DNA from: Candidatus Cloacimonadales bacterium
GTDB lineage: Bacteria > Cloacimonadota > Cloacimonadia > Cloacimonadales > JAIOQZ01
Length of the DNA stretch: 64,000 nt
NCBI GenBank assembly: GCA_963674825.1
Contig: OY771587.1
Coordinates: forward strand, 1,856,001 to 1,920,000
Reading direction: 5' to 3'
The translations under genes and the position numbers were made by a program. Shown here piece by piece: positions 9,601-59,699 of the stretch. How positions within the stretch are numbered: the stretch's first letter is position 1; each line of letters opens with the position of its first letter. Below the pieces are notes generated by a model. The model saw nothing but the letters and a program-made list of their open reading frames with translations, made no database searches and was not told the origin of the DNA.

Positions 9601-10460
9601 TCGCCACCAAGCAGGAAGTAGCTTGAGCTGTATTCTTCGTAGCAGTACTCGATAAAGTTACGGATTTTGTCACCATTATCGACGCCATCGTAGGTACTGT
9701 AAATTTCGTCAACAGTCATTACGATAGGATTGAACCCCTGCTCACTCTTTAGTTCGATGAGCGGTTCAAAATTATCGACATAGTCTTCATCGGTGATGAT
9801 AACCAGAAGGTGCACTTCGGTGCGGTCGCGGGTCTGCATCGGGTATTGCATCAGCATGTGCTGATTCTGAACCATGCTGGATACGAACTTCTGAGTCTGC
9901 TCGTCCGCGCGGAAGAAATGATCGAAGGCATCTTGTGCCTGTTGATCATGGCTGGTCTCGATACGAACAGTCATGTCGGGATAATAGACAATCCGTTGTT
10001 CCGATGCGATATACTGAACCGGATAGACATTCACCAGCGCGATGGAGTGACCACGATAGTATTGCGTGGAGAGTCCTTCATAGAGGCTGGATGGGTAGGC
10101 CTCAGCGGAAGCGTATTGTGCGGCGTTTGGTTGAGTGAACGTCGCGGTATCACTTTGGCTGATCGGAACGGGGGTCTGGCAGGGATAGAGCATGAATTGG
10201 CCATCTATCTCCACGGGTTCGCCTGTTTCGATCACAACCGAGATCGCTTTCTCTCCTGGAGGAATAAGCAAGGATACCGGCAGCGATGGAAGCTGAGGCA
10301 TGCCCGGTTTGGTTAGATAAATTCCACCGTCGATCTGTACTCGCTGGTACGAATCGATACGGAGAATGTCGGGTCGTTGATTTTGGATTGGCTGCTCGAC
10401 TACCGTCGCGAAAAGCGGCAGCGTGGCTATGAGCAGGATCAATATGATGCTTTTTCTCAT
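6651..10460 (-). CDS. Secreted peptidase C25 (gingipain-like) with Ig-like domains and FlgD-Ig/Por-type C-terminal sorting domain
   Basis: Signal peptide; propeptide (PGMPQLP); LLGGD; SDLYY; NHLGH and QGCY catalytic His/Cys; FGDP; C-terminal NSPNPFNPTT...YNIKGQKV...WNG...SSGVYFY...RKMLMMK. Confidence 0.88.
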   Translation of the reverse strand: MRKSIILILLIATLPLFATVVEQPIQNQRPDILRIDSYQRVQIDGGIYLTKPGMPQLPSLPVSLLIPPGEKAISVVIETGEPVEIDGQFMLYPCQTPVPISQSDTATFTQPNAAQYASAEAYPSSLYEGLSTQYYRGHSIALVNVYPVQYIASEQRIVYYPDMTVRIETSHDQQAQDAFDHFFRADEQTQKFVSSMVQNQHMLMQYPMQTRDRTEVHLLVIITDEDYVDNFEPLIELKSEQGFNPIVMTVDEIYSTYDGVDNGDKIRNFIEYCYEEYSSSYFLLGGDVNIVPYRGFYVQAGSTTDTAIPSDLYYSALDRNGVGTGPDWNTDNDNYWGEVDEADFLPEVAVARISAQNDSEFDAAVHKQVMYQLNPVVDELDNALMVGEELNDNPYTYGGNYKDQIVNGGTYDGYSTTGISDNFNIDTLYERDGYWSRSDLQNAMNGGLNLINHLGHSNTDYNMKFYLSDVTNNNLTANGITHNYFQIYSQGCYSASFDYNDSIAEKFTTIANGCAVYVGNSRYGWYMPGGTNASSQYLDRQFYDALFAEEIYRVSDANNDSKIDGANQSVNDAWFRWTVYELNVFGDPTLELWTAEAETMNPVYPSGIPISAMQFEVQTGIAGAMIGVSLDGEPIDTQIADANGNATINFSSPLENTGMIDITISAHNYLIHQGQIPIVASDEPFIIIDGFTFDAGDDNVIEFGEEVSVSVTLLNMGQQAASDASMSLSYMGQHIELTDNTETIGNMAAGESVTLEDAFSFTVSQNVPNGFEFNLSGLISAGDNNWTVQMNGIAYAPELMFTGVEVDDDNDGVLEPGETAELRLYVTNDGGATANNLNLEIVTVNPIISFDNNSGTITQLTPGAQDYITLPVTVSENATEGYLGLFTVEIDGDNGIEFNDSFIVMIGEILEGFENGDFSGYEWDSSGNADWFITASESYEGQYSARSGNINGNQETTLEVTLNVLMDGTVSFYKKVSCEDDSANNYDFMFFAIDGEEMGRWDGEVAWSLSAYAVDAGIHTFTWTYSKDVYMDDGSDCAWIDNISFPAFAAEEVPGLMLGSSQLDFGVVEVGESSSRSLSLFNVGEVDLIGTIEVPEAFSITQTSRNGSAMRAERNLVSFSVVPMGMATFQITFAPSEEGDFSAYAELTSNDPFNTLALLPMAAITSGMEAEEEPPVFTDKVFGNSPNPFNPTTTINFSVKSPNTPVTIDIYNIKGQKVKTLLNDRLDSGMHNVVWNGDDNYGRNVSSGVYFYKTRIGDTDSIRKMLMMK

Positions 10461-40428: not shown

Positions 40429-41322
40429 ATGGCCAGGATAACACAGACCCTTTCTGATGAAGTCATCGCGCGGCTGGACCGCTTCAATCTGCGTGCTCGT
40501 CACATCGTGGAAGGCTTCATGATCGGTCTGCACAAGTCACCCTATCACGGCTTCAGCGTGGAATTTTCCGATCACCGGCAATATAATCCCGGCGACACCA
40601 TCCGCAATATCGATTGGAAGGTATTCGCCAAGACCGAACGCTACTACATCAAGCGTTACGAAGAAGAGACCAACCTCAAATCGTGGATCATCCTCGACCA
40701 CAGTAAATCGATGGGCTATACATCGGGAACGATAACCAAACTCGACTATGCCAAAACACTTGCTTCCGCGCTTTCATACCTGATGGTGTCGCAGCAGGAT
40801 GCCGTCGGCCTGCTGACTTTCTCCGATAAGATCGATGGTTATATTCCGCCGCGCGCCATGCGCAGCTATCTGGATATCATATTCAAAGAGCTTATTGAAA
40901 CCCGGCCAGACAGTGGAACCAACACCATTCAGACGCTGCACAGCCTTGCCGAACGCATCAAGAAGCGCAGTCTGATCATCCTCATCTCCGATCTACTGGA
41001 CGACCCGGACAACATCCTGCAAGGGTTACGTCACTTCCGGCACCAGAAGCACGAAGTGATTCTCTTCCACATACTGGATAAGCAGGAGCAGGAGTTCGAT
41101 TTCAAGAAGGAAACGCAGTTTGTCGATGCGGAGACCGGCGAAAAGATCACCGTGTTTCCCTGGCAGATTCGCAAGGATTACCTGGAGCAATTCCACGGCG
41201 CGGCCGACTACCTAAAGCAGAAATGCCACGAATACCGCGTGGAATACAATCCCATTACCACCGATACGCCCTTCGAACAGAACCTGATGAACTACCTGAT
41301 CAAACGCAGCCGCCTGCATTGA
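40429..41322 (+). CDS. DUF58 family protein (MoxR-associated, VWA-like)
   Basis: Motifs GLHKSP.HGFSVEFSDHRQY.PGD, IDWK, EEETN, DHSKSM and ISD. Confidence 0.9.
   Translation: MARITQTLSDEVIARLDRFNLRARHIVEGFMIGLHKSPYHGFSVEFSDHRQYNPGDTIRNIDWKVFAKTERYYIKRYEEETNLKSWIILDHSKSMGYTSGTITKLDYAKTLASALSYLMVSQQDAVGLLTFSDKIDGYIPPRAMRSYLDIIFKELIETRPDSGTNTIQTLHSLAERIKKRSLIILISDLLDDPDNILQGLRHFRHQKHEVILFHILDKQEQEFDFKKETQFVDAETGEKITVFPWQIRKDYLEQFHGAADYLKQKCHEYRVEYNPITTDTPFEQNLMNYLIKRSRLH
41111..41322 (+). repeat. Direct repeat copy 1: last 212 bp of the DUF58 gene
   Basis: Aligns without gaps to 44304-44515 with 14 mismatches (counted by hand). Confidence 0.95.
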
Positions 41323-41370
41323 AATTATTTCTTAATAACGTCTACGTTAACAACCATAATGCTAGCTTCA

Positions 41371-43758
41371 TTAATGGAAAGGCTTAATATTGGCATTCGG
41401 GCCGAAATTTTCTTTCAATGACGTAAAAATATTTCTTGACTCGTAAAAACCATTCACATCATCATTCCTATTAAGAAGAAGCGTATAGAGTCCTATGTAT
41501 CTATCGATAAACTGGTTATATTGCTGAAGTCCCCAAAATGTCTGCCTGCGCCCCCTTTTCAAAGTCTCCATAAGGTGCTTATTCTTATTGATATACTCTT
41601 TGAAGAAACGTAAATATGTAATATGCTCTGTGACGATTTGATGGATGTAAAACATCTTTGATCCACTCGCTGTTGTTGAGCACCATTTAGATTCAAGAAA
41701 TTCTTGATTTGTCAACTTGATGTCGTCTTTTAAGCAGGTAAGAATCTTATCGTATAGAATACACACTCTCTTATATACACTTTTCACCACAACAACAAAC
41801 TCGTATGTTTTTTCTGGATACTTCATGTCACGGTTCTTATCCTTGTCTTGTTCATTAGGGTAATATGGTATTTTATTAAAAGCCAGATAGAGTGGCACAA
41901 TATATTTATTTGATCTTGAGCAATTAAAGAACTCAAAATTTGTTGAAATGCGATCAATGAAATACTTTCCCAAAGGAGTCAGTCTAATAAAGACCATATC
42001 TTTCTTGGACCTAAAAATGGTGTCAATGATCTTTTCATCGCTCATATTCTTCTGGAGGCTATCAAGTTGTTTCTTTGTCCAATCCTTATAATCAAGCACG
42101 ATGAATCGCTGCCAGTCTCCCTCTTTTGCCCGATAAAGTTGCTTCAGAGTGTCCGATAGCTTGAAGAGGGCTCTATATTGATGCGAAAAATCGCTATTGT
42201 AAGAATCCTCCAAATCTTTTAAGGTAGTAGTGCATTCGTAACCTCCATACGAAGAATTCCGAATAAATGTCAGCACCATACGCTCTAGGCTACATTTCTG
42301 GTTTTTTACGCTTGAGCTTGGCAACGCTATTTGTTTGAAATTATCGTTGTTTATTAAGCTGAAAAAATATACAGTAAAGTCCATTATACTATTACACGGA
42401 AAGTTCTTTGATATTGCTTCATCCTCTGGCCGATCATTTAATGCCAGCTCTTCAAAAAGTTTACTCCACTCAGCCCCAAAGATATCGAAATTGTTTGGAT
42501 TAACGAGGGTTGTCCTTTCCCTTAGCATTTTTAATGTTGCACTTACTCTGTTTTCTTCCAAGTCGTAATCGGAACTAGCACAGCGAAGGGATTTCATAAA
42601 TTTCGTTGAATCATTATTAAAAATGGATGGAAGCCATTTGTCTCGTTTCGTATTATAACCTGCAATATTTGTCCAAGAATTGTAAAGTTTAAAGAGTCCA
42701 AGCTCTTTTTTTTCTTCACTTTGCCCATTTGTGATGTATTGATATCGTTTACGCTGGATATCAAATGTGCTTGAAAGCTTTGAGAGAGTAGATATCTGAG
42801 ATTTATTGCTATATTGTTCAGCAGCTTCAGGCGGTACCAGATTTGAGTAAACATTTCGGTAGACTAAAATAAACTTTACCCTTTCTCTCCAATCAAAACT
42901 AGACACTTTAGGAATGATCTCTTTAATATTGCTTGTAACTTCAAACAAAATTCTCCACAATGGGATTTGTAAAAACCTGAAATCGATACCATCAAGATTA
43001 TCAAATACAAGGTAACATCCCTTAAATTTAAGTAATTCAGATTCAATGACAGACGTGACGCAGAACAACAATAGTTGACCTATCGGATTTAACATGTTAT
43101 ATATTTTTTCGACTGCATCAACTTCACCTGGCATAAACTTCGACACTAAAAGAGCTTTCTTCACATCCTCTTCAGTTATCTTCTTCTGACGCCCTAGATT
43201 AGTTCTATCGTGCAATACTGAGAGAGTCAGGTTATTATAGTGGTCAATAAAATTTTCACAAAGTACCCTATCCTTGAAACGCATATCCCAAAGAAGATTG
43301 ATTACTATATCTCTAATTTCAGGATGGGCTCGAATCTTTTCTAGAAGATATATCTTAATCGTTCTGAAGAAAATAGTCTCGCTTTGCTCATTCCTTTTAA
43401 ACTCTGTTCCTCCCTGGAAAGAAAGAAGCGGATTAACAATAACAGGATTGAAATCATCTTCTAGAAACGTGTTAAAAAACTGCGCTGTTGTTTCCTTGCG
43501 AAACAAACTATTGATCAAAGTAGATTTACCAAGCTTTGCGTAGCCTGTCACAATATTTATATAGGACTTATTTGACTTCTTGTCAGTTATCGAGCTGATC
43601 AACTTCTCCCTGAAAATCCTAAAATCCCTGTCAGCAATGAAGAAGTCCTGATAAAACAATTTCTCAAACTCACTTTGCTTGGCCTCGCGTTCATCAAAGT
43701 AGTTTTTATCATATGGGCTAAACTCTAAAACATTGGAATCTTTCTGCAAGTATTTCAT
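41371..43758 (-). CDS. Large P-loop NTPase of unknown family
   Basis: Walker A IVTGYAKLGKST and Walker B-like YLVFDNLD; AT-rich codon usage. Confidence 0.7.
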   Translation of the reverse strand: MKYLQKDSNVLEFSPYDKNYFDEREAKQSEFEKLFYQDFFIADRDFRIFREKLISSITDKKSNKSYINIVTGYAKLGKSTLINSLFRKETTAQFFNTFLEDDFNPVIVNPLLSFQGGTEFKRNEQSETIFFRTIKIYLLEKIRAHPEIRDIVINLLWDMRFKDRVLCENFIDHYNNLTLSVLHDRTNLGRQKKITEEDVKKALLVSKFMPGEVDAVEKIYNMLNPIGQLLLFCVTSVIESELLKFKGCYLVFDNLDGIDFRFLQIPLWRILFEVTSNIKEIIPKVSSFDWRERVKFILVYRNVYSNLVPPEAAEQYSNKSQISTLSKLSSTFDIQRKRYQYITNGQSEEKKELGLFKLYNSWTNIAGYNTKRDKWLPSIFNNDSTKFMKSLRCASSDYDLEENRVSATLKMLRERTTLVNPNNFDIFGAEWSKLFEELALNDRPEDEAISKNFPCNSIMDFTVYFFSLINNDNFKQIALPSSSVKNQKCSLERMVLTFIRNSSYGGYECTTTLKDLEDSYNSDFSHQYRALFKLSDTLKQLYRAKEGDWQRFIVLDYKDWTKKQLDSLQKNMSDEKIIDTIFRSKKDMVFIRLTPLGKYFIDRISTNFEFFNCSRSNKYIVPLYLAFNKIPYYPNEQDKDKNRDMKYPEKTYEFVVVVKSVYKRVCILYDKILTCLKDDIKLTNQEFLESKWCSTTASGSKMFYIHQIVTEHITYLRFFKEYINKNKHLMETLKRGRRQTFWGLQQYNQFIDRYIGLYTLLLNRNDDVNGFYESRNIFTSLKENFGPNANIKPFH

Positions 43759-44186
43759 GGGCGTTGTCCTTGATTGTTGGCGACGATGTACTCGCTTAGG
43801 GCTATAATCCTTTTCCTCTTGGATTCCGTAATTTGATGGACATTTTCGATTTTAGAGGTCTCTTCGAGGAGATCGTAAAGCCCCTGGATCTCATGCTGGA
43901 TTTGTGATCGCCGCAATGGCCGGTAATGCGTTAAAAACTTGTGATATATATCGATATTATACACATTCAGTAGTCGCTCGTAATCAAGCTTGTTATCAAC
44001 AAAGATTTGTGACTTGATTTCAATATAAAGATTTGTGAGGTTATCTGCTCGGTTATCGTTCCGTTGACCGATACTTGACCAAAGACTGAATGCAACCTTG
44101 ACAAGATGCACAGTAACCATAACTATCAAAACCATGATAAGAAGAGACAGACTACCTTGAAATATTGATTTGATTAATTGATCCAT
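43755..44186 (-). CDS. Small protein with N-terminal transmembrane helix, translationally coupled to the NTPase
   Basis: Hydrophobic stretch LSLLIMVLIVMVTVHLVKVAFSLW; ATGA overlap at 43755-43758. Confidence 0.65.
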   Translation of the reverse strand: MDQLIKSIFQGSLSLLIMVLIVMVTVHLVKVAFSLWSSIGQRNDNRADNLTNLYIEIKSQIFVDNKLDYERLLNVYNIDIYHKFLTHYRPLRRSQIQHEIQGLYDLLEETSKIENVHQITESKRKRIIALSEYIVANNQGQRP

Positions 44187-44303
44187 AAGTTTATCCCCGT
44201 AAATTCAATCAAGCAGAAATGCAATTAGCACGTCAAGGAAATTTTACCGTCAATTAACATTTACTTGATATGACTTATGGTTTTTAATAGGGTTTATTCG
44301 CTA

Positions 44304-44515
44304 AAACGCAGTTTGTCGATGCGGAGACGGGCGAGAAGATCACGGTGTTCCCCTGGCAGATTCGCAAGGATTACCTGGAGCAATTCCACGGCGTGGCCGA
44401 TTACATCAAACAGAAATGCCACGAATACCGCGTGGAATACAATCCTATTACCACCGATACGCCCTTCGAACAAAATCTGATGAACTATCTGATCAAACGC
44501 AGCCGCTTGCATTGA
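44304..44515 (+). pseudogene. Direct repeat copy 2: headless 3' fragment of the DUF58 gene
   Basis: Encodes TQFVDAETGEKITVFPWQIRKDYLEQFHGVADYIKQKC...KRSRLH* with no start codon. Confidence 0.9.
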
Positions 44516-44524
44516 TGCGTTCTA

Positions 44525-45202
44525 TTACTGGTTGATAATCTCCTGTGCTTCTTCCTTGTCGTCGCTGTAGGTGAAGGCTGAGATGATATTGTGCGAATTC
44601 TCACGATCGACAACCATCGGATAAAGGAGACGCAGTGCGGCGATCTGGTCGTCGGAATAGGTCAGGACGGTGATAACACGCACGGTTTGATCCACGGTGA
44701 AATGATTGCGTTTGGCAGCCGACCGGATGACATTGAGTTGGTCGTCCGCAAAACTTTCGTTCCGAATCTGGTTCAGGAGATTGGAGAAATCGGCTTCATT
44801 CATTGCTTGTGAGGTAGGAGCGGATGTCTCCGAAATAACCGGTTCATCCGTCGTGTCGTTGAAGTTGACGTTCAACGAAATGCTCGATGTGGTCGAACTG
44901 CTTGACGTGGTAACTTGAACATGTTCGTCGGTTGGCAGGCTTCCCAGCATGGCGAAAATCTCGTCCATAAGCTTCTTTGCCTTCATGTCGCCGGTTCGCC
45001 CGAGTTTATCCTTGTAGAGCGATTCCAATTCTTCCAGCTTGAGCCCGATATTCTCGACGATCTGACCGGACGATACCGTTCCATTTTGCGTTGTACCGGA
45101 TATCTCTACACTGACTTCCCCGCCGGGTGTTTTAAAGACGATTTCGTCCGCCGTCAGCATTGCGGCGAATAGGAATAGCGCGATTATAATGGTTATTTTC
45201 AT
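44525..45202 (-). CDS. Exported DUF4476-like domain protein
   Basis: Signal peptide; C-terminal M..ADF..L...I..ESF.DD...F...Q...YP..VD..N pattern. Confidence 0.65.
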   Translation of the reverse strand: MKITIIIALFLFAAMLTADEIVFKTPGGEVSVEISGTTQNGTVSSGQIVENIGLKLEELESLYKDKLGRTGDMKAKKLMDEIFAMLGSLPTDEHVQVTTSSSSTTSSISLNVNFNDTTDEPVISETSAPTSQAMNEADFSNLLNQIRNESFADDQLNVIRSAAKRNHFTVDQTVRVITVLTYSDDQIAALRLLYPMVVDRENSHNIISAFTYSDDKEEAQEIINQ

Positions 45203-46613: not shown

Positions 46614-47354
46614 TCAATAAACCGTCGTCATCTCTTCCCACGTAATAGTGAAGCTGTTTACTCCGTCGATCATTTCCTTTCGAGTGTAACGCACATCACC
46701 TTCTGTGTCCTGGACGAAAATGAAACTGTTGGCAGAGAGGTTCATATAGCCTTCGAATTCTCCGTATTCATTGATCATGGGAAAGGCGTAGGTGCAGTAA
46801 AGACCAGGCAGGGGCTGAATGTCGTCAAACATTGCGAAGCCATCTGAAGTTGTGGTTCTGACACCGGGTACATTATCTCCGATGCATTGCAGGAGGTAAA
46901 CATACAGCGTATCCTGCATGGCGATTGCATCCTCCCACCAAACGGTTAGATGCCCTTTATACACGCCTTGCTCAACAGTTTCGCCGAGATAATTTCTACC
47001 GCTCCATATCAGGGAGTGGGCTCCCGAAGGCAGATTTTCGTCGATCGGCATACTGACGAATCGATCCCAATAATCGGTAATGACAAGCTTCGTCGGACAG
47101 GAGCCGAATCCGTAGTCATCGATTGTGAAACGAATTTGCGTAACCGGGCGTAAGCTCAGGCTGTACACATTGTAGGACGAAAGCTGTACCAGATATCCGT
47201 CAAGTGGCTCACCCAATTCGTTCTGCAATAGCACTTCGCATGAGAATGGCGCTTCGGGTACTTCGACTTCCACGATTTCGGTAACGGTCTTTTCTTTTTC
47301 GCAGGCCATGAGCAGAAAACAAAACAGTACAGTGACGATAATCATCAGTTTCAT
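46614..47354 (-). CDS. Lipoprotein with internal FlgD-Ig-like segment (paralog B)
   Basis: Lipobox LMAC; ITDYW...G.HSLIWSG...GETV..GVYK. Confidence 0.7.
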   Translation of the reverse strand: MKLMIIVTVLFCFLLMACEKEKTVTEIVEVEVPEAPFSCEVLLQNELGEPLDGYLVQLSSYNVYSLSLRPVTQIRFTIDDYGFGSCPTKLVITDYWDRFVSMPIDENLPSGAHSLIWSGRNYLGETVEQGVYKGHLTVWWEDAIAMQDTLYVYLLQCIGDNVPGVRTTTSDGFAMFDDIQPLPGLYCTYAFPMINEYGEFEGYMNLSANSFIFVQDTEGDVRYTRKEMIDGVNSFTITWEEMTTVY

Positions 47355-57076: not shown

Positions 57077-58359
57077 ATGATACCCGAAACAGTCAATATT
57101 CCAGTGCTTTTGACGCTGGGCTTCGTGATCGTTGCCGGATTCTATCTTGGCAGGAACATGAAATGGATCAAGATGCCGGCGCTGATCGGTTACATGATTC
57201 TTGGCGTACTGTTGGGACCATCGCTATTCAATCTTCTCCCGTTTGCATTACAGGATAAGCTCGAATTCATCACCAACATCGCGCTGAGCTTCGTCGCGAT
57301 CAGTATCGGTCTGGAAATGAAATACTCAGCGCTTAAGAAGTTGGGTGCCGGTATTCTCTGGATCATCCTTTTCGAGTGCGTAGGCGCATTCGTCATCGTT
57401 TTTGCTGTGCTGTACCCGCTGACAGGTGACCTTGTCTTGTCGCTGATCTTCGCATCGATCGCGCCAGCGAGCGCACCGGCAGGTACCGTCGCTGTCATTG
57501 AAGAATACAAAGCAAAGGGTAGCCTTACCAAAGCGCTTTATGCGGTTGTCGGTCTGGATGACGGTGTGGGAATCATTATCTTCGGTTTCACCGCGTCGAT
57601 CTGCCGTACTCTTCTTGTGAGAGAGGCTGGTGGTGGAGAAATCGATGTCATGATGTTGCTTTTTGAGCCATTCAAAGAGGTGGTTCTGAGCTTTCTGATC
57701 GGTGGAGCGCTTGGCTGGCTCTTCTCCATCATGGCTCGTCGCCTGAAAACCGCCGGAGACGTGTTGATTCTCCTGTTTGGATTTATGTTCATGTCTGCCG
57801 GACTGTGCGAATGGCTTGGTCTCTCTGTGATTCTGACCAACATGGTCGTTGGCGCGATTGTGGTCAACACTCAGCCGCATTCACTGGTCAGCAAAATCTA
57901 CGATCGTCTTCCGATGATCATGCCACTATTGTTCCTGCTATTCTTTACGCTTGGAGGTGCAAACCTTCAGGTGCGCCAACTCCCAGCGCTGGGTGTTCTC
58001 GGTATCGTCTATCTGCTGGCACGTAGTGCAGGGCTTATCGGTGGTGCGTATTTCGGAGGCATGGCCGGGAAGGTCGAAGAGAAGATTAAAAAATACCTTG
58101 GTCTGGGCATCCTTGCGCAGGCTGGTGTAGCGATCGGTCTTTCGCTAGTTATAAAAAACGACTTCGCCAACCTCGGTGGCATGGTTCCCGGCTGAACGGC
58201 GAGATGATCAAGCATGGTGCGCTGATCGGTCAATCGGTCATTACGACGATTACAGCAACAAGTGTGATCTTCGGTATTATCGGCCCGATCCTGGCTAAAA
58301 TCGCGCTTCAAAAAGCTGGTGAAATCACATACGATCCCTACAAATCACAGGATAAATAA
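57077..58359 (+). pseudogene. Cation/H+ antiporter (CPA family) paralog 1, interrupted by a 1-nt frameshift near 58190
   Basis: The ORF stops at 58195 (VPG*). The -1 frame continues LNGEMIKHGALIGQSVITTITATSVIFGIIGPILAKIALQKAGE to TAA at 58359, matching the C-terminus of paralog 2. Confidence 0.8.
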
Positions 58360-58364
58360 GTTTG

Positions 58365-58406
58365 GAGCTTCCGACTAAGCGATCTGCTGAAAGGAAGCTC
58401 ATTTTT
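58365..58406 (+). terminator. Hairpin between the two antiporter genes
   Basis: GAGCTTCC...GGAAGCTC followed by ATTTTT. Confidence 0.45.
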
Positions 58407-58433
58407 AACAAGATAATCGAAAAAGGACGGTAG

Positions 58434-59699
58434 ATGCTACATCTTGATCTTTCAACGTTCGTAATTATCGGTATCGTAATCATCGTTGCATATCATGCAG
58501 GCAAGAATATCCGCTATCTGAAGTTACCGTCTCTGATCGGATATATGATACTTGGGGTGCTCCTGGGGCCGTCGTTACTGAACATCCTCACAGAGTCTGT
58601 GCAGCACCACCTCAGCTTCATTACCGAGATCGCGCTCAGTTTCGTTGCCGTGAGTATCGGACTTGAACTGAAATTCTCAAGCCTGAAGAAGCTGGGCATG
58701 GGTATCATCTGGATCATCCTGATGGAATCGTTCGGCGCGTTTATTATCGTTTTTACCGGACTGTACCTATTCACAGGCGATCTTCCCCTAGCGCTGGTCT
58801 TCGGTGCGATAGCACCGGCGAGTGCTCCGGCCGGAACCGTGGCGGTCATCCAGGAATACCGTGCTCGTGGTAGCCTTACCAAGACGCTCTATGCGGTTGT
58901 CGGGTTCGACGATGGCCTCGGAATCATCATCTTCGGTTTTGCGGCCTCATTCGCGAGGATGATCCTTGATCGTGAGGGCGGCGCTGATGATATCGGGTTG
59001 ATGCAATTGCTCATGAGTCCGGTGATGGAAATCGCGTTCAGCATCCTGGTTGGTATCGCGGCAGGTTGGCTCTTCGCCATCATGTCAAGACGTCTTAAGA
59101 ATCCCACCGATGTGATGCTGCTCCTGTTCGGATATGTATTTCTTTCCACTGGTCTTTGCGAAATGCTGCATCTTTCAGTGATCCTGACCAATATGATACT
59201 CGGAATGTTGATCGTCAACACCCAGCAACACGCGCTGGTACAGAAGATTCACGATCGTCTTCCCTTGATCATGCCTCTTCTATTTCTGCTGTTTTTTACG
59301 CTCGCAGGCGCGCATCTTCACCTTTCCAACCTTCCTGCGCTTGGATTACTGGGAATCGTTTATATTATCCTGCGCACTGCTGGACTGATGGGCGGTTCGT
59401 ACCTGGGCGGTTATCTGGGTAAGGTGGAAAAGAAAATCCGAAACTACACCGGTATGGGTATCCTCTCGCAGGCAGGTGTGGCGATCGGTCTAGCGCTGAT
59501 TGTCAAACACGAATTTACTCACGTCGGAAAGATGGTTGAGACAGCATCCGGAGAAATGACACGTGGTGCGCACATCGGAGCAATCGTCATCACCACCGTC
59601 ACCGCGACCTGCATCTTCTTCGAGATTATCGGCCCCATCCTGACACGAATCGCACTTACTAAGGCCGGAGAGATACCGACTGATGCCAGTGACGATTGA
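58434..59699 (+). CDS. Cation/H+ antiporter (CPA family) paralog 2
   Basis: Motifs LPSLIGYMILG, ASAPAGT, VVGFDDG, QAGVAIGL and EIIGP. Confidence 0.9.
   Translation: MLHLDLSTFVIIGIVIIVAYHAGKNIRYLKLPSLIGYMILGVLLGPSLLNILTESVQHHLSFITEIALSFVAVSIGLELKFSSLKKLGMGIIWIILMESFGAFIIVFTGLYLFTGDLPLALVFGAIAPASAPAGTVAVIQEYRARGSLTKTLYAVVGFDDGLGIIIFGFAASFARMILDREGGADDIGLMQLLMSPVMEIAFSILVGIAAGWLFAIMSRRLKNPTDVMLLLFGYVFLSTGLCEMLHLSVILTNMILGMLIVNTQQHALVQKIHDRLPLIMPLLFLLFFTLAGAHLHLSNLPALGLLGIVYIILRTAGLMGGSYLGGYLGKVEKKIRNYTGMGILSQAGVAIGLALIVKHEFTHVGKMVETASGEMTRGAHIGAIVITTVTATCIFFEIIGPILTRIALTKAGEIPTDASDD

Follow-up and report, generated by a model that had tools for sequence, protein, structure and literature searches.

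How does an ordinary chromosomal gene come to have a second copy of its own last codons some three kilobases downstream, with foreign genes in between and no recombinase among them? The question is raised by a DUF58 gene in a Candidatus Cloacimonadales bacterium, which lies in a 64,000-nucleotide stretch of contig OY771587.1 (GCA_963674825.1, positions 1,856,001 to 1,920,000; hereafter the window, to which coordinates refer). What we observed is that foreign genes lie between two coding alleles of the DUF58 end that have diverged from each other, and that a congener has the empty site. We somewhat favor reading this islet as the scar of a homology-anchored, additive recombination event, and below we weigh that reading against the alternatives.

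Two diverged alleles of one gene end

The locus comprises the following features:

40429..41322, + strand: intact DUF58 gene, 297 aa (vWA-fold, MoxR-associated family; Pfam PF01882, E 1.6e-50)
41111..41322, + strand: upstream copy of a 212-bp repeat, the functional last 70 DUF58 codons and TGA; probably the incoming allele
41323..44303, unstranded: AT-rich islet, 2981 bp, 35.9% GC (genome GC 49.6%)
41371..43758, - strand: intact gene for a 795-aa P-loop ATPase-like protein of an uncharacterised family (Walker A GYAKLGKST, Walker B-like VFDNLD)
43755..44186, - strand: small membrane-protein gene from the ORF list, 143 aa, hydrophobic segment at the N-terminus
44187..44303, - strand: AT-rich leader of the cargo operon, 117 bp, ending at the new junction 44303/44304
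44304..44515, + strand: downstream copy of the repeat, an orphan last 70 DUF58 codons and TGA without an in-frame ATG; probably the gene's former end, now displaced
44525..45202, - strand: convergent host gene, DUF4476 domain, 225 aa; adjoins DUF58 in the congener G002

Comparing 41111-41322 with 44304-44515, we found a 212-nt direct repeat at a spacing of 3193, with 93.4% identity and 0 indels, both copies terminating at TGA, and a search of the whole genome for a third copy returned none. The 14 mismatches fall in 13 codons, 11 of them synonymous and two encoding A258V and L262I, with the changed residue in both cases, judged against genomes G002 and G003, residing in the downstream copy. 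That copy ends 9 bp short of the stop of the convergent DUF4476 gene. The repeat, the mismatch tally, the AT-rich interior and this 9-bp gap were all as the initial annotation had described them. When 14 random substitutions were placed under a neutral model (20,000 simulations at each of three transition biases), the mean was 9-10 amino-acid changes, against the 2 observed, and two or fewer changes arose in at most 1/10,000 of simulations per bias (P<=1e-4). Both copies diverged as coding sequence (dS ~0.25, dN ~0.013), and neutral decay is excluded because of the synonymous bias between them, which bears out the earlier proposal that protein-level selection had acted on both and that this was no decaying duplication. 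The first 25 bp of the copies are identical, which is not significant (p=0.22 alone; 0.10 over three scars, whose identical leads of 25-37 bp are likewise not significant).

A repeated gene end could also arise from local duplication followed by decay, or from an assembly that merged two strains into a chimera, and short-read contigs do break within the repeat, so that linkage across it rests on the assembly. The synonymous bias speaks against the duplication. As for a chimera, in runs X1 and X2 the Logan contigs run across both islet junctions with 0 differing letters, at depths over left flank, islet and right flank of 38.7/41/36.1 (X1) and 43.7/43.2/42.8 (X2) that indicate single copy. X1 and X2 represent one sample, possibly the source of the assembly, and with the contigs breaking in the repeat they are not independent proof of linkage; a second sample, however, also contains the islet DNA without differences. 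We therefore consider either version next to negligible, and the strain-chimeric misassembly that would have undone the initial annotation found no support. The search for strains of the same species yielded 3 runs from 2 samples, all of identical sequence, and a metagenome scan for a same-species empty allele returned 80 loci, the best 64% identical. The earlier suggestion to look for an excised circle was answered in part: contigs of X1 and X2 list no joint that skips the islet, those of three runs show no excision joint, and contigs drop rare variants.

The cargo operon

The islet is compact, its genes being flanked by just 48 bp and 117 bp of non-coding sequence, and neither of its two ORFs belongs to a recombinase or transposase family or resembles a recombinase remnant, in agreement with the initial annotation; blastn against the rest of the genome gave 0 other matches. 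The 795-aa protein has four distant full-length relatives (19-22% identity in alignment, Walker motifs aligned), which carry weak AAA/STAND Pfam matches, and its Atlas neighbours are of the KAP/AAA_22 type (score 0.98). The 143-aa gene overlaps the start of the ATPase gene by 4 bp and is its probable operon partner; its product matched 0 Pfam families above cut-off and fell in unnamed Atlas clusters at 0.92, a recognition under the tool's threshold. A promoter scan of the 117-bp leader did not rise above shuffles, and promoter, terminator and Rfam scans gave nothing exceeding chance.

Evaluating function, we found 0 PADLOC families and 0 NCBIfam matches for the cargo proteins, and no restriction-modification (R-M) family in the islet. 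Relatives of the cargo were absent from word-indexed searches and from genome contigs, and the family was not found in 231 other genomes of the phylum or in the plasmids or phages searched. The cargo AlphaFold model (pLDDT 44) was too poor to judge fold, Foldseek returned 0 matches at E<=0.001, and PDB sequence matches were to P-loops only (E>=0.097). Judged by its composition and its absence from the phylum, the cargo is foreign, and it has probably been retained for its own benefit. Anti-phage defence as its role is a guess that we hold tentatively, and the operon is a candidate defence locus for an anti-phage screen.

Direction of change and origin of the islet

DUF58 orthologues occur in 40/41 genomes searched, and in G002 (same genus, 85% DNA identity) the gene lies 4 bp from the convergent DUF4476 gene: this is the empty site that the initial annotation had advised seeking among relatives, known from a between-species comparison only. 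Because the downstream copy has this same neighbour, it is probably the original DUF58 end, as had been proposed, and the upstream copy is probably the incoming allele, a direction that draws on G002 synteny and the low GC of the cargo. The copies differ from each other by 14 positions and from congener alleles by 24-40, so the second allele would come from a very close relative. The suggested tree of both copies and alleles, built from 11 short rows, had 0 supported branches. Allele distances do not fix the direction of replacement, and the 5' part of DUF58 sides clearly with neither copy (p=0.15 and 0.74). The reverse history, in which intact gene and cargo were resident and the orphan end arrived with the DUF4476 side from a donor of G002-type order, accordingly has the distances open to it and a G002 gene order that is exactly that of the orphan side; it is nevertheless very improbable, given a cargo foreign in composition and missing from the phylum, a DUF4476 side of host-like GC, and an orphan that in genome G222 is the native piece.

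G222 serves as a natural test. Four of 232 phylum genomes gave two DUF58 matches, two of which were dropped from the count: in G171 both genes are whole and lie on separate contigs, and in G076 contigs overlap by 127 identical bp. The orphan end is present in 2/232 genomes, this one and G222, at different codons (70 codons long here, 53 in G222). The cassette hotspot suggested earlier is not borne out, with an orphan in only 1/231 other genomes and at another breakpoint; the same DUF58 codon was never seen broken twice (one genome per species, broken assemblies). The G222 orphan faces ffh, its ancestral place by synteny in G225, G226, G227, G215, G219, G220 and G216, and differs from G225/G226 by 9-13%, much as ffh and the gene preceding DUF58 do (10-13%). 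For the intact G222 gene, divergence is 17-18% in the 5' 681 bases and 14-15% in the final 159, without a step at the orphan start (117/681 vs 15/159, p=0.015, a p-value that compares kin). The whole intact gene, not its tail alone, looks foreign by these distances, and the pattern points to a homologous crossover far upstream of the repeat and an illegitimate joint inside the gene, so that this second case allows the crossover to be placed away from the repeat. The two pieces lie on different contigs (C289, C74) in an assembly of 440 contigs, and the orphan is preceded by ileS and a toxin-antitoxin pair, so that any linkage between the pieces is conjectural and they may reflect a later rearrangement or a mixed bin.

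Two further scars occur in this genome, at unrelated genes and with unrelated junctions, and a shorter one in G003:

R-M scar, outside the window: 56-58 bp from a 105-aa gene of poor conservation, flanking an MTase and an EcoO109I-family REase; 2 synonymous changes
cas2 scar: 173 bp of cas2; 11 changes, all synonymous
G003 scar: 23-bp repeat flanking a secreted-protein gene

Downstream of each cas2 copy lies a separate CRISPR array (18 and 4 repeats). No close orthologue of the 105-aa gene was found, no empty site for the G003 scar was found in this genome, and G002 has one orphan gene end. Checking the scar sites revealed no common junction motif and no recombinase trace; among 13 junction pieces compared, only the two ends of a tRNA-Thr island matched. 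A gene-end repeat scan of the genome gave 5 downstream matches vs 6 upstream control matches, 2 of the 5 being dropped because a single shadow ORF overlying paralogues had produced them. The genome's other direct repeats are mostly tails of paralogues, tRNA ends, CRISPR repeats or repeats between genes. In G003, 45/61 downstream matches belong to one CRISPR array and 15 others, judged by eye, are short repeats, mostly at spurious ORFs; no long synonymous pair was found in its 2.34 Mb. Five of the six tRNA-bounded segments of the present genome are without an intact integrase, three of these without any trace, the smallest integrase-free one being 969 bp with one AT-rich gene, and the genome retains one intact integrase, in an island, and one serine recombinase.

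The event that we propose would run as follows. In a very close relative, a two-gene cargo would have been placed convergently right behind DUF58, and a chromosome fragment from that relative would have entered the present lineage. On its DUF58 side the fragment would have undergone homologous recombination at some point within the gene or upstream of it, while its other end would have joined without homology to the resident DUF58 at codon 228. The product would be a whole DUF58 gene with the donor ending and the cargo gained, the resident's last 70 codons shifted 3.2 kb downstream and the convergent neighbour kept intact; 41111 would be just the cut point of the resident gene, with the donor tract possibly reaching further 5'. 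A variant would give the same product, by end-joining of the fragment into a circle and then one RecA crossover, and neither route would need a dedicated recombinase. Campbell-type capture of a circle is possible and in this genome indistinguishable from one-sided capture. On the proposed route, donor and recipient share no sequence beyond the stop codon, which is why the repeat would end there. In support stand the G222 test, the varying breakpoints, the scars at unrelated genes without a shared junction motif or recombinase trace (integrase being kept at icd sites, see below), the presence of ComEC and DprA genes and a class already described in the relevant parts of PMC2853133 and PMC5361080. 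Against it count the stop-codon end and synonymous changes, which an element-borne replacement end also predicts, the frequent loss of integrase among tRNA-bounded segments of this genome, the want of a long synonymous pair in G003, and the occurrence of ComEC and DprA in 10-11/14 control genomes as well. Classical laboratory homology-facilitated illegitimate recombination (HFIR), moreover, usually deletes recipient DNA without duplicating it, which also counts against the scar.

The chief competitor is a remnant of a site-specific element or prophage that, in the manner of e14 at icd, targeted DUF58 codon 228 and carried a replacement 3' end, and that lost its integrase by internal deletion, leaving attachment-site-adjacent cargo. 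The replacement end does restore the DUF58 gene, E. coli icd/icdC offers a close parallel (PMC13626634, in the part used here), this genome has integrase-free tRNA-bounded segments as small as 969 bp, and the identical first 25 bp and an inverted repeat (6-of-8 at the right junction, 4-of-8 at the host junction) could mark an attachment site. Neither mark is significant, however, with 9% of random sites reaching 6; the islet has no recombinase trace, no element was found at DUF58 in the 231 other phylum genomes or at those loci whose downstream DNA sufficed (48 of 117), the sole other orphan has a different breakpoint without a divergence step at its start, and three unrelated coding targets would require three lost integrases. 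We consider such a remnant unlikely, though a serious contender. A live cassette without a recombinase of its own, which a recombinase encoded elsewhere would excise and move in trans with DUF58 as its hotspot, gains from the compact islet, the intact operon and several integrase-free segments alongside the one island integrase still intact and the serine recombinase. It is improbable, as the islet junctions share nothing with the intact island or the other scars, a result that also tells against the trans mobilisation suggested at first, and as no excision joint (contigs only), no repeated breakpoint and no cargo relative in other phylum genomes, plasmids or phages searched was seen. There is a slight chance that small recombinase-free cassettes circulate in this lineage as circles, each carrying the last codons of a host gene, entering by single crossover without harm to the gene and delivering uncharacterised defence operons, here a new system of P-loop ATPase and membrane protein, to ordinary gene ends throughout the chromosome.

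Comparison with known systems

The islet is probably a recombination scar of a known kind and not a new mobile element, and no new mechanism is needed. As a clean natural example, it indicates that long repeats around integrase-free inserts can be the alleles of two lineages rather than copied target, which is relevant to how chromosomes gain defence-like genes in the absence of mobile elements and cautions that island finders may label such scars attachment sites. The named class is insertion with long target duplication, integrase-free inserts with long repeats over gene stops (Furuta, Abe and Kobayashi 2010, PMC2853133, in the part used here; Nobusato et al. 2000 as cited there). In common with that class, the islet is short (2981 bp, against a criterion of <20 kb), has an imperfect repeat above 30 bp (212 bp) that spans the stop and leaves the target gene intact, lacks a mobility gene and has an empty site in a relative. 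Unlike the class as that part describes it, it carries no restriction-modification genes and its repeat consists of diverged alleles (dS ~0.25), so it was not produced by copying the target. By the same source, the R-M scar of this genome (MTase plus REase, 56-58 bp) falls within all three numbered criteria.

As described in the part of PMC5361080 drawn on here, 3'-end displacement occurs in Vibrio T6SS effector-immunity arrays, and in Rhs/CDI orphans cited there: a conserved upstream anchor acquires a new 3' end and new downstream genes, and the old end is pushed back as an orphan, with no recombinase, as at DUF58. Where these arrays gain a new toxin tip, the islet has a synonymous replaced end and adds unrelated cargo behind an ordinary gene. 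Of the HFIR-type traits, an illegitimate joint at a variable position is seen (70 vs 53 codons; unrelated junctions elsewhere), and an upstream homologous anchor gives no signal in this genome (p=0.15) and is supported at DUF58 of G222 (p=0.015). No donor sequence that might show microhomology at the joint was found in the runs, metagenome loci and phylum genomes searched. PMC2884548, PMC3636060 and PMC5812530 held nothing decisive for the islet in the parts used.

A nearly figure-for-figure likeness is e14 at icd of E. coli K-12 (NC_000913 annotation), where the 165-bp icd/icdC pair has 12 mismatches spread over 11 codons (9 synonymous, 2 Asp/Glu): an end of similar length, about 7% different, nearly all synonymous with two conservative changes, and ending at the stop. 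Cargo lies beside the attachment sites there too (PMC13626634, same part). At icd, however, all 5 two-copy sites examined in E. coli (e14 and four others) retain an integrase, whether as a gene or as a pseudogene, and many strains reuse one site, neither of which is true of the DUF58 islet.

The DUF58 allele pair and its cargo

As the initial annotation had described, the final 212 bases of the DUF58 gene are present again 3193 bases downstream with 14 mismatches and no indel, and these mismatches fall in 13 codons, 11 of them changed synonymously and two conservatively.

40429-41322, DUF58 gene (PF01882)
41111-41322 and 44304-44515, upstream and downstream copies of the gene end
41323-44303, islet

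When 14 substitutions were placed randomly in simulation, 9-10 amino-acid changes were expected, and at most 1/10,000 runs produced two or fewer. Because so few changes are this rare under random placement, we conclude that the two ends diverged while both were coding, which bears out the protein-level selection proposed earlier. The genome carrying the window is a single contig of 3.89 Mb, and read contigs speak against the strain-chimeric misassembly that had been raised as a concern: in two runs of a single sample, contigs reach across both junctions with zero differing letters and at the depth of the flanks, though they end inside the repeat, may derive from the assembly's own sample and leave rare excision invisible. 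A low-depth second sample also contains islet DNA.

The islet interior (2981 bases, 35.9% GC vs 49.6% for the genome) holds two overlapping minus-strand ORFs (143 and 795 aa), which leave 117 and 48 bases of non-coding DNA. The 795-aa protein resembles four distant proteins over its full length (E 2e-6 to 3e-4), and its Walker A and Walker B-like motifs align with theirs; these relatives have weak Pfam matches of AAA/STAND types, below or near cut-off, and its Atlas neighbours are unnamed or KAP/AAA-like. It had no PADLOC or NCBIfam match and no relative among the phylum genomes, plasmids and phages searched, and its structure model was too poor for use. A possible defence role is suggested by the composition, the kind of domain and the R-M genes carried in sister scars (further orphan gene ends beside inserted DNA).

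The DUF58 locus in relatives

The islet was not found in three congeners (G001, G002, G003). The G002 locus represents an empty site of the kind that the initial annotation proposed to look for, with DUF58 4 bases from the convergent DUF4476 gene that neighbours the downstream copy in the window; DUF58 neighbours in G001 and G003 differ from those in G002. Since the two window copies differ mutually by 14 bases and from congener alleles by 24-40, the source of the extra allele was more closely related to the window's genome than any of the genomes compared.

Matches to the last 69 DUF58 codons occur in 202 of 232 phylum genomes, with two matches in four: the window's genome, G171, G076 and G222. 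G171 was rejected as a second case for having two whole DUF58 genes and G076 for a contig overlap; the true orphan besides the window's is in G222. A second copy was absent from all 48 loci with at least 3.5 kb downstream (of 117 DUF58 loci). Because second copies are so rare, the cassette hotspot envisaged at this gene is not supported as a fixed feature, in a test weakened by fragmented assemblies and by the sampling of a single genome per species.

G222:C74:20222-20380 (L273:4723-4881), orphan DUF58 end in G222, last 52 codons and stop

This orphan faces a convergent MTase, a probable endonuclease gene and then ffh, with an antitoxin/ParE pair on its other side, behind ileS; the usual order in the family is DUF58 facing ffh. 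It differs from related genomes G226 and G225 at 15/159 and 20/159 bases, in line with ffh (12-13%) and the gene upstream of intact DUF58 (10.5%). From both of these, the intact gene is 17-18% distant in its 5' 681 bases and 14-15% in the last 159, with no divergence step at the position of the orphan start. The orphan is nearer to alleles of genus g64 than it is to the intact gene of its own genome. A crossover at the repeat start would predict one shared lineage for 5' part and orphan; in a test among kin the lineages were not shared (117/681 against 15/159, p=0.015); applied to the window's genome, this test showed no signal (p=0.15). Most simply, a divergent allele anchored upstream may have taken the place of almost the entire gene and displaced the native tail, a reading that is suggestive rather than proven, as gene and orphan sit on separate contigs. 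Separately, the gap between DUF58 and convergent ffh in family f17 (L275-L288) is a variable intergenic site with 0, 1 or 2 differing small genes per genome.

Other orphan gene ends and the possible loss of integrases

A scan of 2874 ORF ends in the window's genome (G000) found five orphan copies downstream and six upstream, including two further scars of like anatomy; orphan ends in congeners are listed with them.

G000:C1:3839099-3841022 (L130:5100-7023), outside the window, 105-aa membrane-protein gene, last 56-58 bases repeated
G000:C1:1823409-1823581 and 1837673-1838063, cas2 (type I-E), last 173 bases, copies 14 kb apart
L244:12487-18907 (G003:C4), glycosyltransferase gene end, perfect 23-bp repeat around a 6.4-kb insert
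L031 reverse complement 10356-10404 (G002:C6), last 16-17 codons of a FlgD-Ig gene, upstream of DUF4476

The integrase-free 1.8-kb insert at the 105-aa gene encodes an N4/N6 MTase and an EcoO109I-family endonuclease, and its flanking copies differ by two changes, both synonymous. The cas2 copies carry 11 changes, all synonymous and grouped within about 46 bp. Each copy has a separate CRISPR array (18 and 4 repeats) that starts 7 bp past its stop; the cas2 pair lies within a tRNA-Thr island and could instead stem from deletion between two related tandem islands. No long repeat pair was found in the 2.34 of 4.1 Mb scanned of G003, where the glycosyltransferase insert is a single gene for a 1832-aa secreted protein with no recombinase seen. 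The FlgD-Ig orphan corresponds to the gene ending at window position 46614.

Several other repeats were recorded. At G000:C1:2903238-2905402 the 3' end of a 666-aa gene recurs upstream of that gene as a 105-bp copy (93%), a mirror arrangement; a further repeat, of 64 bp, lies close by. Single AT-rich genes between 60-205 bp intergenic direct repeats (G000:C1:444726-446230, 2971306-2972371, 2785429-2786180, 3315059-3316990) are possibly REP-like elements trapping cargo, and direct repeats spaced 1351 bp at window 57260-59537 (120 nt at 72%, 27 nt at 74%) are probably tandem paralogues.

The main rival reading, a decayed element of the type of the E. coli prophage e14 that has lost its integrase, we consider possible but rather unlikely. 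The icd/icdC pair of e14 is a near twin of the DUF58 pair (165 bases with 12 mismatches; 9 codons changed synonymously and 2 exchanging Asp/Glu; PMC13626634), and integrase-free remnants do arise in the window's genome, because three of six tRNA-bounded segments gave no integrase trace in tblastn searches using its own recombinases; two others have remnants and the last an intact integrase.

G000:C1:3134427-3135427, tRNA-Gly islet, 969 bp, one AT-rich gene of ~290 aa, no integrase
G000:C1:2095324-2111341, 3598724-3632400 and 1973784-2002715, tRNA-Pro and tRNA-Arg islands without intact integrase, one of which carries a Cas9-like operon and array plus an integrase tail interrupted by a stop, and another a truncated integrase-like gene

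Against decay, however, integrase or its pseudogene is kept at 5/5 two-copy icd sites examined (MG1655 and 4 of 15 listed), and reuse of the DUF58 breakpoint was not seen. Two further features fall short of significance: the identity of the first 25 bases of the copies (p=0.22; 0.10 when all three scars are taken together) and an inverted repeat matching at 6 of 8 positions (expected by chance in 9%). The genome encodes one serine recombinase and three tyrosine recombinases, none of them within the scar islets. Mobilisation in trans, also put forward initially, now looks highly improbable: no sequence is common to the scar junctions, mutually or with the genome's intact island.

Probable homology-anchored capture and known systems

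On balance we lean towards homology-anchored additive capture at DUF58, in which a homologous crossover in or before the gene and an illegitimate joint at codon 228 would have restored the gene with the donor's end and displaced the resident old end. A limited literature search found no report of DUF58 as an integration site. The repeat is real and well supported as an allele pair, and the arrangement is a new instance of an already known kind. Insertion with long target duplication, which is described as involving no other mobile genes and often spanning start or stop sites (PMC2853133), works alike, but the DUF58 islet is not a strict member since R-M genes are absent; the 3'-end displacement in T6SS arrays (PMC5361080) also works in the same way.
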